DNA of 64,000 nt from Gammaproteobacteria bacterium. Its GTDB lineage: Bacteria > Pseudomonadota > Gammaproteobacteria > SZUA-229. Positions 42,420 to 49,604 of the stretch are shown here, piece after piece. The stretch lies in NCBI GenBank assembly GCA_041589455.1, contig JBFHVQ010000004.1:2191-66190 (forward strand). The letters run 5' to 3'. The notes beneath the pieces are model-generated. The model ran no database searches. It was given only the letters and a program-made list of their open reading frames with translations, and was not told where the DNA came from. How positions within the stretch are numbered: the first letter of the stretch is position 1; each line of letters begins with the position of its first letter. Both the position numbers and the translations under genes were made by a program.

Positions 42420-43112
42420 ATGGCTGATTTTAAAATCGCACCCTCTATTCTGTCTGCAGACTTTGCTAAGTTAGGTGAAGAAGTCGACAATGTTATTAAA
42501 TCTGGTGCGGATATCGTGCACTTCGACGTAATGGATAACCACTATGTGCCTAACCTGACAATCGGTCCGCTGGTGTGTGACGCACTGCGTAAGCACGGTG
42601 TTACTGCTGAGATTGATGTGCACCTGATGGTGAAGCCGGTTGATCGTATTATTCCTGATTTTGCCGAAGCTGGCGCAAGCTACATTACTTTCCACCCAGA
42701 AGGTTCAGAGCATATTGACCGCAGCCTGCAGATGATCCGTGAGCTGGGTTGTAAGTCTGGTCTGGTATTTAATCCTGCTACACCGCTGGATTGCCTGAAA
42801 TACGTGATGGATAAAGTAGATATGATTCTGCTGATGTCTGTTAACCCAGGTTTCGGTGGTCAGTCATTTATTCCTGCAACTCTCGACAAGCTACGCGAAG
42901 CACGCAAGCTGATTGATGAGTCAGGTTATGATATCCGTCTGGAAATCGATGGTGGTGTAAAAGTAGACAATATCCGTGAAATCGCCGAAGCCGGTGCAGA
43001 CACTTTCGTTGCAGGTTCTGCCATTTTTGGTGCAAAGAACGAAGCGGATGCCAATGTTTATGACACAGTTGTTGGCAAGATGCGCGAAGAACTGGCTAAC
43101 GCTAAGGTTTAA
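42420..43112 (+). CDS. rpe: Ribulose-phosphate 3-epimerase
   Basis: [17 protein letters not shown]...[12 protein letters not shown]...VNPGFGGQ. Confidence 0.95.
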
Positions 43113-43176: not shown

Positions 43177-43851
43177 ATGTTAAACAAACCTGAAATGGTG
43201 CTGATCGATGTTGATGGCACCCTGGTAGATAGTGTCCCAGATCTGGCTTACTGCGTCGATGAAATGATGAAGCAGCTTGGTATGGCAGAACATGGTGAAG
43301 AAAAAGTGCGTAACTGGGTCGGTAATGGTGTTGAACGCCTGACACGCCGTGCACTAATCGGTCAGCTGGATGGTGAACCAGATGATGAGCTGTTTGATAA
43401 GGCTTATCCAATCTTCCTGGATCTATACGATAAGAATGTGTGTGAACGCAGCTGTTTGTATGACGGTGTGCGTGAGGCGCTGGATTTTCTTAAGTCGACC
43501 GATGTGAAAATTGGTTGTGTTACTAATAAAAACGCACAGTTCACATTACCGATTCTTGAAAAACTGGGTATAAAAGACGACTTTGAGATCATTATTTGCG
43601 GTGATACGCTAAGCAAGAAAAAGCCTGATCCAGAGCCTTTGTTGCATGCAGCGAGAGAACTGGGTAGCACGCCAGAGCACTCATTAATGCTCGGTGACTC
43701 GATGAGTGATGTGAAGGCGGCTAAAGCCGCAAACTTTAAGATCATCTGTATGAGCTATGGGTATAATCATGGCGAAGATATCCGCGATTACCATCCGGAT
43801 GCCGTGGTTGATTCAATGGCGGAAATAAAGGGTCTGATTAACTGGTCCTGA
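43177..43851 (+). CDS. gph: Phosphoglycolate phosphatase (HAD)
   Basis: LIDVDGTLVDS motif I, VTNK, and GDSMSDV. Conserved rpe-gph adjacency. Confidence 0.85.
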   Translation: MLNKPEMVLIDVDGTLVDSVPDLAYCVDEMMKQLGMAEHGEEKVRNWVGNGVERLTRRALIGQLDGEPDDELFDKAYPIFLDLYDKNVCERSCLYDGVREALDFLKSTDVKIGCVTNKNAQFTLPILEKLGIKDDFEIIICGDTLSKKKPDPEPLLHAARELGSTPEHSLMLGDSMSDVKAAKAANFKIICMSYGYNHGEDIRDYHPDAVVDSMAEIKGLINWS

Positions 43852-43904
43852 ATTAAAGAGTTTAGGTTATGACATTTTCCAGACAGGGTAATAGAAGGGT
43901 AGAC

Positions 43905-43934
43905 ATGCGTTTATTCAAACATTGGCGATGGTAA
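43905..43934 (+). promoter_or_regulatory. Candidate trp leader peptide ORF (MRLFKHWRW)
   Basis: 9-codon ORF with AAGGG 5 nt upstream of the ATG. Two of its last three codons are Trp, and it lies 57 nt upstream of trpE. It is enclosed by complementary arms at 43874-43887 and 43971-43984. Confidence 0.5.
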
Positions 43935-43990
43935 ACATCACGACCGCCTGTAATTCCGTGTGTGTTTAAACCTGTCTGGAAAATTGAAAA

Positions 43991-45496
43991 ATGACTGCTT
44001 TGAAAATATCTAAACAAGAATTTGCCAAGCTGGCAAAACAAAACTACAGCCATATTCCCCTGGTACACGAAGTGCTGGCGGATCTGGATACGCCTTTAAG
44101 TGCCTATCTCAAGCTGGCAAACTTGCCTTATTCTTATCTGTTCGAATCTGTTCATGGTGGTGAGAAGTGGGGGCGTTACTCTATTATCGGTCTGCCCTGT
44201 GAAACGCGCATCAAAGTGTTTGCAAAACAGGTTCATATTGAAGTAGAAGGTCAATCTACCGAAGTACATGAGGTTGAAGACCCACTGAGCTGGATCGAAG
44301 ACTATCAACAGCAGTTTAATGTGCCGGATATTGAAGGCTTGCCTCGATTTATGGGTGGCCTGGTGGGTTACTTTGGTTACGACACCATACGCTATATCGA
44401 ACCCAAGCTGGCGAGTGAAGATAAGCCGGATGCATTACAGACACCCGATATTTTATTGATGCTCTCAAAAGAAGTTGTGGTGTTCGATAACCTCAGTGGC
44501 AAACTGTATTTTATCGTTATGCTGGAACCTTCCCAGGAAGATGCTTATCAGCAGGGTGAGGCGCGTTTATTGCAGCTGGAAACACAGCTGCGTCAGTCAG
44601 TGCCAACCTACCAGCCTTCTGAGAAAAGTGTCAAGGTTAAGGAAGATGACTTTGTTTCGGGCTTTACCGAACAAGGCTTTATGGATGCGGTTAGAAAAGC
44701 CAAGCAGTATATTGTCGATGGCGATGTGATGCAGGTTGTGCTGTCGCAACGTATGTCGATACCATTTGCGGCGCAGCCACTGGATTTATATCGATCGCTG
44801 CGTAGCCTGAACCCGTCGCCTTATATGTACTACCTGAACCTGGATGATCATTATGTGGTGGGTTCATCCCCTGAAATACTTGTGCGCCTCGAAGATGATG
44901 AGGTGACGGTCAGACCGATTGCCGGTACACGCCCCAGAGGTTCAACAGAAGCTGAAGATCAGGCCTTAGAGAAGGATCTGCTGGCAGATCCTAAGGAACT
45001 GGCTGAGCATTTAATGCTGATTGATCTTGGGCGAAATGATGCGGGCAGGGTTAGTAAAATTGGTACCGTTGAGCTCACTGATAAAATGATTATCGAACGT
45101 TATTCTCATGTAATGCATATCGTCTCGAATGTGACTGGTGAACTAAACGAAAACATGTCGGCGATGGATGTTCTGCGTGCAACTTTCCCAGCTGGTACAG
45201 TGAGTGGTGCACCAAAAATTCGAGCCATGGAAATCATCGACGAGCTGGAACCGGTTAAACGGGGTATTTATTCTGGCGCCGTTGGTTATCTGTCCTGGAA
45301 TGGCAATATGGATACGGCGATAGCGATTCGTACGGCAGTAATTAAGGATGGTACGCTGAATATTCAGGCAGGTGCAGGGATTGTCTATGACTCTGTGCCA
45401 GAGAATGAGTGGGCAGAAACAATGAACAAGGGACGTGCTGTATTTCGTGCAGTAGCCATGGCGGAAGCCGGACTTGATGGTTCTACTGCTAAATGA
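43991..45496 (+). CDS. trpE: Anthranilate synthase component I
   Basis: 501 aa. LFESV, GYFGYD, and the chorismate-binding C-terminal GAVGYLS..G..D.AIAIRT motifs. Confidence 0.95.
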
Positions 45497-45540
45497 TTCT
45501 GATTGCCACCTGGCAAAAATGCTTTTTGGAGCTGTATTAA

Positions 45541-46344
45541 ATGAAAGCCTTTTGCGAAAAAATTGTAGAACATACCTTATTTGAAAAGGTCATTATTGGC
45601 CTGATTATTTTGAATGGTGTGATTCTTGGATTAGAAACATCCAGTGACATCATGCAGCAGTATGGAAGCCTGTTAGAGAAGGCCAGTGATCTTATACTGC
45701 TGGTGTTTATACTGGAAGCCGTAATGAAAATAACGGCAGTGGCGCCTAAATTCAGTCGCTATTTCGGTTCTGGATGGAATCTGTTCGACTTTAGTGTTGT
45801 GGTGTTGTCACTGGTGCCAAGCACCGGTGAGTTTGCCATGATCGCTCGACTGGCGCGTTTGCTACGAGTGATGCGACTGATTTCGACGATTCCGGAATTA
45901 CGCCTGATTGTCACCACGCTGGTACGCTCACTACCCGGCATGATGCATGTTGTGCTGCTGATGGGTGTGATTTTTTATATTTATGCGGTAGCGGGCTTTC
46001 ATTTATATCACCAGCATGATCCGGAATTATGGGGAACCCTTGGGTTGTCATTATTGACGCTGTTTAGAGTGGTGACCCTGGAAGACTGGACCGATGTAAT
46101 GTATACCGCGATGGAAATGCATCCATTGAGCTGGATTTATTTTGTTAGTTTTGTGGTGGTTGGTACCTTTGTTATTATCAATCTGTTTATTGCGGTTGTA
46201 TTAAACAATCTGGAAGAAGCCAAGCAGGAAAGGCTGGAAGAATTACGTAAGCCAGTTAATCGAGATGAGCTATTAAAAGAGCTCAGACAAACACAGGAAA
46301 TGCTGCAGAAATTGCAGGTCAAAGTTGAGAATACGTCGTTATGA
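45541..46344 (+). CDS. Voltage-gated ion channel of the bacterial NaChBac/BacNav type (6TM, single domain)
   Basis: S1-S6 hydrophobic pattern, S4 [11 protein letters not shown] (Arg every third residue), pore [14 protein letters not shown], and a C-terminal coiled-coil-like tail. A GGAG RBS precedes the start; the stop overlaps the trpG ATG. Confidence 0.85.
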
Positions 46345-46919
46345 TGTTAATGATAGATAACTATGATTCATTCACCTATAACCTGGTGCAGTACCTGGGA
46401 GAGCTGGGTGCGGATGTGGTGGTACATCGTAATGACCAGATTAGCCTTGAAGAAATAGAAGCGCTAAATCCAGAGCGCATTATGATTTCACCAGGACCCT
46501 GTACACCCAACGAGGCAGGAGTATCGATGAAAACCATAGAGTACTTTGCAGGTAAGCTGCCGATTTTGGGTGTGTGCCTCGGGCATCAGAGTATTGGTCA
46601 GGTATTTGGTGGAAAGATTATTCATGCAAAAGAAATTATGCATGGAAAAACCTCGATGATTCATCACAATAACAGTGGTGTATTCACTGGTTTGAATAAT
46701 CCTTATGAGGCGACACGATATCATTCATTGGTCATTGAAAAATCGAGTATACCTGATTGCCTGGAAATTACGGCATGGACAGAAAATGAAGATGGCAGCA
46801 TGGATGAAATTATGGGTGTGCGTCATAAAGAGTATGCCATTGAGGGTGTGCAATTTCACCCGGAGTCAATACTGACTCAGCACGGTCATGACTTACTAAA
46901 GAATTTTTTAAAGATGTAA
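46341..46919 (+). CDS. trpG: Anthranilate synthase component II (glutamine amidotransferase)
   Basis: [23 protein letters not shown] catalytic Cys, and QFHPES. Confidence 0.95.
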
Positions 46920-47055
46920 AATCCCGGGCACAGTCAGGTAATGTAATGTTTGCATGATCTTCTGGCTTTGTGTAAAGCAATCACCCAGATGGTTAATTTA
47001 ATTATTAATAATCGACACTGAACCGATATAACTCTGCATCAAAAAGGTGTTCAAC

Positions 47056-48072
47056 ATGGATATGCAATCTGCAATAAAAGCGGTCACAGAAAAACAGAAT
47101 TTAAGCCGTGAGCAAATGACGCAAGTCATGAATCTGATTATGACAGGTCAGGCAACAGATTCTCAGATTGGCGGGTTTCTGATTGGTTTACGTATGAAAG
47201 GCGAGACAGTTGATGAAGTAGCTGCTGCCGCATCAGTCATGCGAGAGCTATCGACTAAAGTCGATGCGCCAGATAGTAATCTGGTGGATACCTGTGGCAC
47301 GGGCGGAGATGCTTCCGGAAGTTTTAATATTTCAACTGCGTCTGTATTTGTCACCGCAGCAGCCGGTGCTCATGTTGCAAAGCACGGTAACCGCTCTGTT
47401 TCGAGTAAGTCAGGAAGTGCAGATGTTCTGGAAACCGCGGGTGTTAATCTTGATATTACGCCACAGCAGGTTGCTGAGTGTATAGAGAAAATAGGTTGTG
47501 GTTTTTTGTTTGCGATTAAACATCATGGCGCGATGAAACACGCGATTGGCCCAAGAAAGGAAATGGGCGTACGCACTATCTTTAATGTGCTAGGTCCATT
47601 AACTAATCCCGCGGGTGCGCCTAACCAGGTTATAGGTGTGTTTAGTAAAGACTGGCTGGTGCCACTTGCTGAAGTACTTAAGCAGCTGGGAAGTCGTCAT
47701 GTGATGATCGTGCATGCCGATGATGGTATGGACGAAATTAGTATTGGTAGTGCAACCTCGGTGGCAGAATTAAAAGATGGTGAAATTAATACCTACACGA
47801 TCCAGCCTGAAGATTTCGCGATGGATACATCCGATCTTGCGGAAATTCGCGCAGCTGATTCAGCAGCCAGTCTGAAAATCATAAATTCGGTGCTAGACAA
47901 TGTTGAAGGCCCTGCCAGAGATATAGTCTGCTTAAATGCAGGTGCGGCAATTTATGTTTCCGGTCTGACAGACTCCTTGCAGTCAGGTATTGAGAAAGCA
48001 CGGACTGTGATTGCAGATGGTAGTGCCAAAGAAAAATTTGATAGCCTGATAGAATACACAAACCAATTTTAA
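47056..48072 (+). CDS. trpD: Anthranilate phosphoribosyltransferase
   Basis: [35 protein letters not shown]. Start set at the ATG preceded by AAAAAGG. Confidence 0.95.
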
Positions 48073-48093: not shown

Positions 48094-48891
48094 ATGAGTA
48101 AGCAACCTGATATCCTGCAGAAAATTCTGAAACGAAAAGTTGAAGAAATTACAGAAGCCTCAGCAAAAGAATCGCTACAGGCATTAAGTCAGCGTGCCGA
48201 GTCGGCATTACCTGTGCGCGGTTTTATTAAAGCGATTGAAAATAAAATTGCAGCAGGGCAGTCAGGTGTTATTGCAGAAATAAAAAAAGCTTCACCAAGC
48301 AAAGGTGTAATGCGTGAAAATTTTATACCTGCTGATATTGCCAGAAGTTATGAAGGTGGTGGCGCGGCCTGTTTGTCTATTCTGACCGACCGTGATTTTT
48401 TTCAGGGCGCACCTGAGTTTCTCATGCAGGCCAGAGAAGCGGTTAGCCTGCCGGTGATTCGTAAAGATTTTATTATTGATCCTTACCAGGTGTATGAAGC
48501 AAGAGCCATGAATGCAGACTGTATTTTACTGATTGTCTCTGCACTAGGTGACGCCATGCTTAATGAGCTGTTAGGGCTGGCACATCATCTACAGATGGAT
48601 GTATTGATGGAAGTGCATGATAGAGATGAAATGGCACGGGCGATACAGACAGGTGCCCGATTAATTGGTGTTAATAACCGTAATTTACGCACATTTGAAG
48701 TTAGTCTTCAGAATACCCTGGACATGCTTGATTTGTTGCCAGATGACAGAGTGCTGGTAACAGAAAGTGGCATACATGCACCCGAAGATGTGAAGCTGAT
48801 GCGCGATCATAATGTGAATGCGTTTCTGGTGGGCGAGGCCTTTATGCGAGCCGAAGAACCTGGGGAAAAACTGGCGGAATTATTTGCCTAA
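48094..48891 (+). CDS. trpC: Indole-3-glycerol phosphate synthase
   Basis: [34 protein letters not shown]. Confidence 0.95.
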
Positions 48892-48956: not shown

Positions 48957-49604
48957 TTATCGAGCATCGTGTACTACGATAGTCTTACCATGGGCAGAAA
49001 TGAGCCCGTCTTCTTCTAGTTCTTTAAGTACTCTACCGGCCATTTCACGTGAACAACCGACGATTTTTGCAATATCCTGACGAGTTATCTTTATTTGCAT
49101 ACCATCAGGGTGAGTCATTGCGTCAGGTTGCTGACTAAGCTCCAGTAATGTGCGGGCAATACGTCCTGAGACATCCAGGAATATCAGGTCGCGTACTTTC
49201 TGGCTGGTTTTAATCAGACGGTCGAAGATCTGCCCGGATAGCAGGAATAATATTTCAGGGTCTTCCTTTACCAGCTTACGAAACTGTACATAGGAAATTT
49301 CAGCAATTTCACAGGGTGATTTTGCGATAATCTGGGCGCTACGGTCCAGCTTCTCCTTGAACAGGCCGGCTTCACCGAAAAAGTCACCGCTATTCAGGTA
49401 GGCAAGGATAATTTCTGAACCTTCATCATTCTCAGTCTGTACGCTGACCGAGCCCTTGATGATATAGTACAGGCTATGTGGTTCGTCCCCTTCGTGGATG
49501 ATATTTTTCTTTGCTGGATAGGTCTTGCGATGACAATGATTCAGCAATAATTCCAGTGAAGGGTTAGAATTGTCTACTTTAGGTAACAGGCTCATAGGTT
49601 CCAT
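48957..49604 (-). CDS. crp: cAMP receptor protein (CRP/Vfr family transcription factor)
   Basis: cNMP-binding FFGEAGLF...RSA.. and a C-terminal HTH ([25 protein letters not shown]). Conserved position after trpC, as for Pseudomonas vfr. Confidence 0.9.

Follow-up and report, generated by a model that had tools for sequence, protein, structure and literature searches.

Introduction

Almost nothing is known of what bacterial voltage-gated Na+/Ca2+ channels do in the physiology of their hosts, and a lineage that keeps such a channel in an amino-acid operon makes a prediction, namely that channel expression follows the supply of tryptophan (Trp). In the BacNav family of these channels, NavPp and the predicted ancestral BacNav share the selectivity filter TLEDWTD. 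NavPp selects Na+ and is blocked by Ca2+, but nearly the same filter, when placed in NavAb or NaChBac, is Ca2+-selective (Shimomura et al., 2020, PMC7041947). Genes other than trp genes have been recorded inside trp operons, for example in the trpF-B-X-A arrangement of Burkholderia, and have been discussed as possible "morons" (Xie et al., 2003, as cited in Kagan et al., 2008, PMC2395257), and the trpE/trpG junction of Pseudomonas aeruginosa is well documented as the site of the R/F-pyocin cluster. Here we describe a locus in which both themes meet. In a 64,000-nucleotide (nt) stretch of DNA from a gammaproteobacterium of the SZUA-229 lineage (NCBI GenBank assembly GCA_041589455.1, contig JBFHVQ010000004.1, positions 2,191 to 66,190 of the forward strand), hereafter the window, a gene for a predicted voltage-gated cation channel, one of the ancestor-like BacNavs (the AnclNav group), lies between trpE and trpG.

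The account that we favour, and to which we give somewhat better than an even chance, is that the channel is an old and often-lost accessory passenger of the trpE-G-D-C operon, with a function of its own unrelated to Trp, which rides on the operon transcript. It draws on the comparison of about 160 related loci, labelled L001 onward; window coordinates are positions in the 64,000-nt stretch. The locus presents a known channel group in an undescribed operon context, though one not unprecedented in kind, and a search of the literature found no paper tying BacNav channels to trp operons.

The trpE-channel-trpG arrangement and its conservation

The junction is made up of the following features.

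trpE, 43991-45496, + strand: anthranilate synthase component I (TIGR00564, 3.9e-177, above cut-off; Pfam Chorismate_bind)
trpE-channel spacer, 45497-45540, + strand: 44 nt, in which a weak hairpin (45503-45516) precedes the GGAG (45528-45531)
Channel gene, 45541-46344, + strand: predicted AnclNav-type single-domain voltage-gated cation channel of 267 amino acids (aa), from Ion_trans (1.5e-46), PDB matches and tree placement
ATGA, 46341-46344, + strand: overlap of the channel stop (TGA, 46342-46344) with the trpG start (ATG, 46341-46343)
trpG, 46341-46919, + strand: glutamine amidotransferase of anthranilate synthase (TIGR00566, 1.2e-85, above cut-off)

The stop of trpE is a TGA at 45494-45496, the GGAG is placed 9 nt ahead of the channel ATG, and other in-frame ATGs for trpG are present at 46344 and 46350. 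A preliminary description, made from the letters of this DNA alone, had reported a 267-aa open reading frame (ORF) 44 nt past trpE and behind GGAG, with its TGA overlapping the trpG ATG, and these coordinates were reproduced. Its view that the channel gene is embedded in the manner of an operon member likewise stands, given the common strand, the short gaps to the neighbours (44 nt on the trpE side, -4 nt on the trpG side) and the synteny kept in relatives.

When close homologues of the channel were collected from one genome per species, 79 loci resulted, in nine of which the channel stands directly behind trpE: L001-L005, at 82-87% identity, and the Arenicellales-type L046, L050, L061 and L065, at 59-67%. 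The complete trpE-channel-trpG order is kept in L046 and L061 (Arenicellales), while in L050 (2817-3626) and L065 (5001-5813), both Arenicellales-type, the channel begins 3-5 nt past trpE, the next gene is convergent and no trpG lies downstream. A metagenome scan seeded with TrpG added 80 related loci, with the channel at trpE/trpG in 18, which belong to the window's clade, a direct trpE-trpG junction in at least 42 and other cargo in six. Across the 22 trp-embedded loci, trpE and the channel stand 3-60 nt apart in all except L003, where the spacer reaches 101 nt. The comparison of trpE-trpG junctions that the preliminary description had proposed thus finds the channel recurring in relatives from two clades (see below) and, since the arrangement is neither recent nor strain-specific, sets aside the outcome it had named as fatal to its own reading, a recent insertion absent from relatives.

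In about 70 of the 79 homologous loci, trp genes are absent from the surrounding ~5 kb; these loci belong to Nitrospirales, Zetaproteobacteria, Dehalococcoidia and other gammaproteobacteria. At these stand-alone homologues the upstream gap is mostly 100-400 nt, the downstream gene is often convergent, and 86 neighbours match 72 different Pfam families. The sole recurrent neighbour family is a CBS-domain gene (~145 aa) found on the same strand, ~136 nt upstream, in Nitrospirales L009-L042 (17 of the 86 neighbours), and its product is a possible candidate for a functional partner of the channel there.

Identity of the channel

On the evidence of its sequence, the ORF is predicted to encode a single-domain voltage-gated cation channel, full-length and belonging to the AnclNav group. 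Residues 11-230 cover profile positions 1-239 of 241 in Pfam Ion_trans (PF00520, 1.5e-46), and full-length sequence matches in the PDB are to NaChBac (6vwx, 1e-53, residues 5-236), NavRh, NavMs (5hvx) and NavAb (4ekw). The elements below were located in an alignment of 22 channel homologues, in which the invariance of motifs was judged.

S4 voltage sensor, 45847-45876, + strand: R103, R106, R109 and R112, invariant in the 22 homologues
Selectivity filter, 46075-46095, + strand: T179-L-E-D-W-T-D185, invariant in the 22 homologues
C-terminal helix, 46261-46341, + strand: predicted, with 3-4 heptad spacing (L244, L248, T251, L255, L258, V262) in the same alignment

Equally invariant are the acidic residues E32, E59 and D83 of S1-S3, together with N25 and an asparagine of S6; the filter lines up with the TLESW of NaChBac and NavAb, and the hydrophobic 3-4 repeat spans residues 244-262. 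The profile, the PDB matches and these residues agree with the earlier identification of a BacNav-type channel with S1-S6, an arginine-rich S4 and a pore loop. An AlphaFold 2 monomer built from a 22-sequence alignment was of low confidence (predicted local distance difference test score 55, predicted template modelling score 0.34); it has the expected order of helices (S1-S6, P1/P2 and a C-terminal helix, at 241-265) and was not used for claims about the fold.

A neighbour-joining (NJ) tree with 300 bootstraps, for which the reference sequences came from the source data of PMC7041947, separates the canonical BacNavs from the rest in 264 replicates (88%) and places the window channel on the AnclNav side. 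There it groups, in 282 replicates (94%), with homologues from Mariprofundus ferrooxydans PV-1, Nitrosococcus halophilus Nc4 and a Pseudomonadales metagenome-assembled genome, to which its identity is 67%, 62% and 60%, respectively. The label "BacNav-type" is right at the level of the family only, and AnclNav is the more precise one. Since a nearly identical filter confers opposite selectivities depending on its background, selectivity for Na+ or for Ca2+ is not readable from the motif of the window channel, and no member of the compact subgroup to which it belongs was recorded electrophysiologically in PMC7041947.

Within the close subgroup, as the window (46075-46095), L066 and the Pseudomonadales sequence of the PMC7041947 source data show, the filter varies between TLEDWTD (NavPp-like), TLEGWVD (CavMr-like, the Ca2+-selective type) and TLEGWTV. 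The locus and its relatives add AnclNav members that are compact and bear the "ancestral" filter TLEDWTD, and natural variants such as TLEGWVD would be useful in studies of selectivity.

Age, descent and selection

The trp-embedded channels fall into two clades, A (that of the window, 85% bootstrap) and B (the Arenicellales type, 99%), which come out as exclusive sisters in just 6% of NJ bootstraps; the channel may have been captured at the junction once or twice. The gammaproteobacterial clade of the window is related to Arenicellales but distinct from them. Channel tree and Trp tree agree within clade A, and in a tree of TrpE plus TrpG the lineages with and without the channel are interspersed. 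Nonsynonymous divergence (dN) of the channel is close to that of trpE (0.088 versus 0.080 and 0.120 versus 0.113 in example pairs), and in unsaturated pairs the ratio of dN to synonymous divergence (dS) lies at 0.03-0.06, just as it does for trpE, trpG and trpD. Between the window and its nearest relatives dS is saturated, which makes the arrangement ancient. The GC content of the channel gene (0.42-0.47) is that of its flanks, no repeats bound the gene, no phage relatives of the channel were found, and its plasmid relatives are all below 45% identity. Taken together, the parallel dN of trpE, the congruent trees, the saturated dS, the flank-like composition and the lack of bounding repeats or phage relatives indicate that the gene is old at this site, has been inherited with the operon and is functional; it is intact, and its substitution rates place it under purifying selection.

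The same observations bear on whether the channel might be recent cargo, brought in by a mobile element or by horizontal transfer much as the P. aeruginosa pyocin cluster was. Such an origin would suit the presence/absence polymorphism of the channel among relatives, the standing of the trpE/trpG junction as a known landing site in Pseudomonas, and the other cargo found at the same junctions (see below), but it is largely refuted by the normal composition and lack of flanking repeats, by the absence of phage relatives and the remoteness (<45% identity) of plasmid ones, by a channel dN that tracks that of trpE in congruent trees, and by the age that saturated dS implies. We regard it as highly improbable.

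Overlap with trpG, losses and other cargo

The ATGA overlap is kept in at least 14 loci (the window, L001-L005, L080, L081, L084, L085, L091, L113, L119 and L132); the stop/start overlap first noted in the window is thus retained in all overlap-type relatives, which consist of the window subgroup plus L119 (93% bootstrap). Basal members of clade A and those of clade B have instead 18-39 nt between the channel stop and trpG. As these spacer-type channels end (LQEKMERMTG, then stop) at a position homologous to the stop of the overlap type, the overlap would have arisen through loss of the spacer. In most channel-less relatives only 0-5 nt separate the trpE stop from the trpG start, typically as cacaggTAAtcgatATGATG or as abutting codons, from which it follows that tight trpE-trpG coupling is the default state and that the junction is intra-operonic in this clade.

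One channel-less locus, L092, still contains the 3'-terminal ~27-30 nt of the channel ORF, identical to L084 at 31 of 34 positions, with a local alignment score of 21 against a shuffle maximum of 13 (none of 200 shuffles reaches the score). Its trpE-trpG gap is 44 nt long and holds a 10-codon mini-ORF that ends, as before, in an ATGA overlap. This remnant is, to judge by the match, a deletion scar of the channel, and a mini-ORF that is kept and translated may maintain the coupling to trpG. The gaps of L095 and L097 (102 and 86 nt) hold 21-codon ORFs that also end in an ATGA overlap and whose peptides resemble the N- and C-termini of the channel; they were considered as further scars, but their local DNA alignments are no better than those of shuffles and they are suggestive only. 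With at least 42 related loci joining trpE directly to trpG and one locus bearing a significant scar, the channel is dispensable at the trpE/trpG site.

Other genes occupy the same or neighbouring junctions in some relatives. A conserved protein of 334-408 aa, whose N-terminus resembles a signal peptide and which matches no Pfam family, is encoded at trpE/trpG (L147:2723-3733, L153:2748-3752, L158:2935-3993, L157:693-1919). Small PDDEXK_3 (GxxExxY-type) genes occur at trpE/trpG or trpG/trpD (L129:3566-3943, L150:742-1137, L092:2454-2828, L093:4616-4996, L138:4642-5019, L088:4627-4836), and their scatter suggests a mobile or repeatedly inserted element. At trpG/trpD, a gene for an MFS_1 transporter (~405 aa) is found in the spacer-type channel lineage (L111:4638-5858, L115:4626-5837, L114:2584-3801, L096:1180-2418, L124:1504-2718), which gives the trp operon of that lineage two membrane-protein passengers. 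In relatives, the trpG/trpD gap may hold PDDEXK_3, the transporter or both.

The wider operon, its probable leader and transcription signals

Around the junction, the window holds the following further features.

rpe, 42420-43112, + strand: ribulose-phosphate 3-epimerase (Pfam Ribul_P_3_epim, 1.7e-90), syntenic in relatives and first gene of a conserved rpe-gph-trpE cluster
gph-like gene, 43177-43851, + strand: HAD phosphatase (Pfam HAD_2, 1.4e-36), syntenic in relatives
Putative trp leader peptide ORF, 43869-43935, + strand: MTFSRQGNRRVDMRLFKHWRW, ending in HWRW and a stop; an alternative start at 43906 gives MRLFKHWRW and a stop
Predicted leader RNA helix, 43873-43986, + strand: 43873-43887 pairing with 43971-43986, immediately ahead of the ATG of trpE
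trpD, 47047-48072, + strand: Pfam Glycos_transf_3, 1.6e-92
trpC, 48094-48891, + strand: Pfam IGPS, 1.9e-94
crp-like gene, 48957-49604, - strand: convergent neighbour after trpC

A Trp-sensing leader upstream of trpE is likely. Of 52 loci examined, 34 have a W-R-W-stop ending ahead of trpE, whether or not they bear the channel, and in a further few, including Arenicellales-type loci, the leader ends in WW-stop or similar. The leader region folds with a minimum free energy of -37.2 kcal/mol (z -3.18 against shuffles), and both arms of the helix are conserved in 16 relatives, with just one pair showing a compensatory change; what is claimed for the helix goes no further than conserved sequence. 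No U-tract terminator was seen in the leader region, and Rfam returned nothing at the gathering threshold across the whole window and chance-level matches only in 43700-47100, with no Trp_leader among them; the mechanism may be translational rather than classical transcriptional attenuation. If the channel is co-transcribed, leader control would extend to it, and Trp-responsive co-expression of the channel with the trp genes is plausible.

On transcription signals the preliminary description needs a small correction. It had seen neither a terminator-like hairpin nor a promoter-sized gap on either side of the channel gene, and the second half of that statement holds, there being no promoter-sized spacer and all scans and folds lying at background, whereas the first does not, as a small terminator-like hairpin is present at 45503-45516, with a 5-bp stem and a T-run 7 nt later. 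A weak terminator-like site was also found by terminator scan at the 3' end of trpC (48873-48888). Promoter-like matches of the sigma-70 type number 13 in the region against 15.2 expected from shuffles, and no promoter was assigned; pattern scans of this sort are unable to prove the absence of a promoter or terminator between the genes.

It could be supposed that a promoter in the 3' part of trpE drives the channel, and perhaps trpGDC, and/or that the spacer hairpin acts as a partial terminator, with the channel level then largely uncoupled from the leader. The spacer hairpin with its T-run, a promoter-like site at 45060-45087 inside trpE and the strong spacer hairpin of L003 (-38 kcal/mol) all lend something to this idea, as does the organization in Pseudomonas, where trpE and trpGDC are separate units. 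However, the fold of the 44-nt spacer does not stand out from those of shuffled sequence (z -0.31), none of the 22 related trpE-channel spacers shares a conserved hairpin plus T-tract, promoter-like matches are no commoner than in shuffles, and the 0-5 nt trpE-trpG gap of channel-less relatives places the junction inside the operon in this clade. Independent expression of the channel therefore seems unlikely to us.

Two features of these spacers are recorded in their own right. The 101-nt spacer of L003 (299-399) contains a long hairpin (~-38 kcal/mol, z -2.6) absent from all other loci, which may be an insert resembling repetitive extragenic palindromic (REP) elements or a terminator. A conserved GCTTTTT(N)GGAGC stands ahead of the channel ATG (45520-45533 in the window, and in homologous spacers) and could fold into a hairpin of 4-6 bp that covers the Shine-Dalgarno sequence, which might hold translation of the channel below that of the Trp enzymes.

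A passenger of the operon or a part of the tryptophan response?

If the channel is a passenger, as we think probable, its gene, having no promoter-sized spacer of its own, would be transcribed by read-through from the rpe-gph-leader-trpE unit, with an mRNA level that follows the Trp-codon leader. Translation would begin from its own GGAG, and ribosomes ending at the channel TGA would restart at the overlapping trpG ATG, a coupling that would re-create the tight trpE-trpG connection (0-5 nt gap) of channel-less relatives. The history that we propose begins with an ancient capture at the junction, with a short spacer before trpG, and would have continued with loss of the spacer to give the ATGA overlap, and then with vertical inheritance in the operon and repeated deletion. 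The channel itself would act as a homotetramer with its own task in the membrane, presumably the voltage-dependent entry of Na+ and/or Ca2+, useful but dispensable, for which the trp operon would serve mainly as an expression platform. Read in this manner, the locus is a natural example of how a passenger is integrated, by capture with a spacer, compaction to an overlap, vertical inheritance and repeated deletion that left at least one scar. A channel that is only a passenger would also make the locus an evolutionary anecdote and not new physiology.

Several observations sit uneasily with a passenger. Persistence beyond the saturation of synonymous sites, purifying selection and a strict overlap together exceed what is typical of a transient "moron". 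The same channel family stands right after trpE in two supported clades, with many channel-less lineages lying between their hosts, and two independent captures, had they occurred, would make the choice of site look non-random. The adjacency of trpE and channel in L050 and L065, where trpG is missing, hints at a specific link between the two genes, and a promoter inside trpE is possible, in which event the channel would not simply ride on the operon transcript.

The contrary proposal, which is that of the preliminary description, is that co-regulation is adaptive, the channel being kept because its expression must rise as charged tRNA-Trp falls, with cation entry or membrane potential tied to the starvation response or to anthranilate/indole metabolism. 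Its supports are the retention of the arrangement over deep time under strong purifying selection, its occurrence in two clades, the trpE-channel adjacency without trpG in L050 and L065, the fact that neither flank of the channel has a promoter-sized gap or a terminator that is conserved and, indirectly, the conserved Trp-codon leader ahead of trpE. Yet the channel has been lost cleanly and frequently in close relatives, some of them from the same samples, the same junctions hold unrelated cargo, most close homologues stand alone among unrelated neighbours, and the literature search yielded no known biochemical link of BacNav channels to Trp. We hold adaptive co-regulation to be a minority possibility, rather doubtful on balance. 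The preliminary description had taken the arrangement to imply that membrane excitability or ion entry is co-regulated with Trp limitation; at least 42 direct junctions, a deletion scar, unrelated cargo and stand-alone homologues with heterogeneous neighbours leave that implication unsupported. In its most specific form, in which the channel was placed, possibly twice independently, behind trpE under a Trp-codon leader and cation influx or membrane potential became part of the Trp-starvation response in two marine gammaproteobacterial lineages, the idea is a distinctly long shot. It would, if true, give the enigmatic AnclNav channels a regulatory input and hence a physiological role.

Comparison with known systems

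NaVBP from the alkaliphilic Bacillus pseudofirmus is, to our knowledge, the only BacNav for which a physiological role is documented, namely in motility, in chemotaxis and in the homeostasis of pH (Ito et al., 2004, cited in PMC7041947). It offers a template for what the window channel might do, though it belongs to a different subgroup, that of the Bacillus BacNavs. We know of no linkage of NaVBP to an amino-acid operon.

Among canonical BacNavs, NaChBac, NavAb and NavMs are homologous to the window channel over their full length (E 1e-53 to 1e-50) at 35-39% identity and share with it the four S4 arginines and a T-L-E-x-W filter; the C-terminal tail of the window channel, by its hydrophobic spacing, may be coiled-coil-like as theirs is. 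The filter of canonical BacNavs is TLESW(A/S)x and that of the window channel TLEDWTD, and neither canonical clade includes the window channel. NavPp (Plesiocystis pacifica) and CavMr (Meiothermus ruber) have the same six-transmembrane architecture and belong to the same AnclNav group, the filter of NavPp being identical; they are 36-38% identical to the window channel (NavPp 36%) and carry a long extracellular P2-S6 insert that the window protein lacks. Closest are the AnclNav homologues of Mariprofundus ferrooxydans PV-1 and Nitrosococcus halophilus Nc4 (Shimomura et al., 2020, PMC7041947), which share both the compact length of ~267 aa and TLEDWTD.

For the operon, the R/F-pyocin cluster of P. 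aeruginosa shows the same junction serving as a landing site for non-trp cargo, but that cluster is a large, separately regulated, phage-derived island, whereas the window has a single gene with short spacers, a stop/start overlap and no sign of a mobile element. The trpF-B-X-A type of Burkholderia (PMC2395257) is likewise a case of an unrelated same-strand gene lodged between trp genes and conserved in its lineage. Compared with such insertions, the passenger in the window can be identified as a voltage-gated channel, its gene separates those for the two subunits of one enzyme (TrpE/TrpG), and it appears to have taken over translational coupling to trpG.

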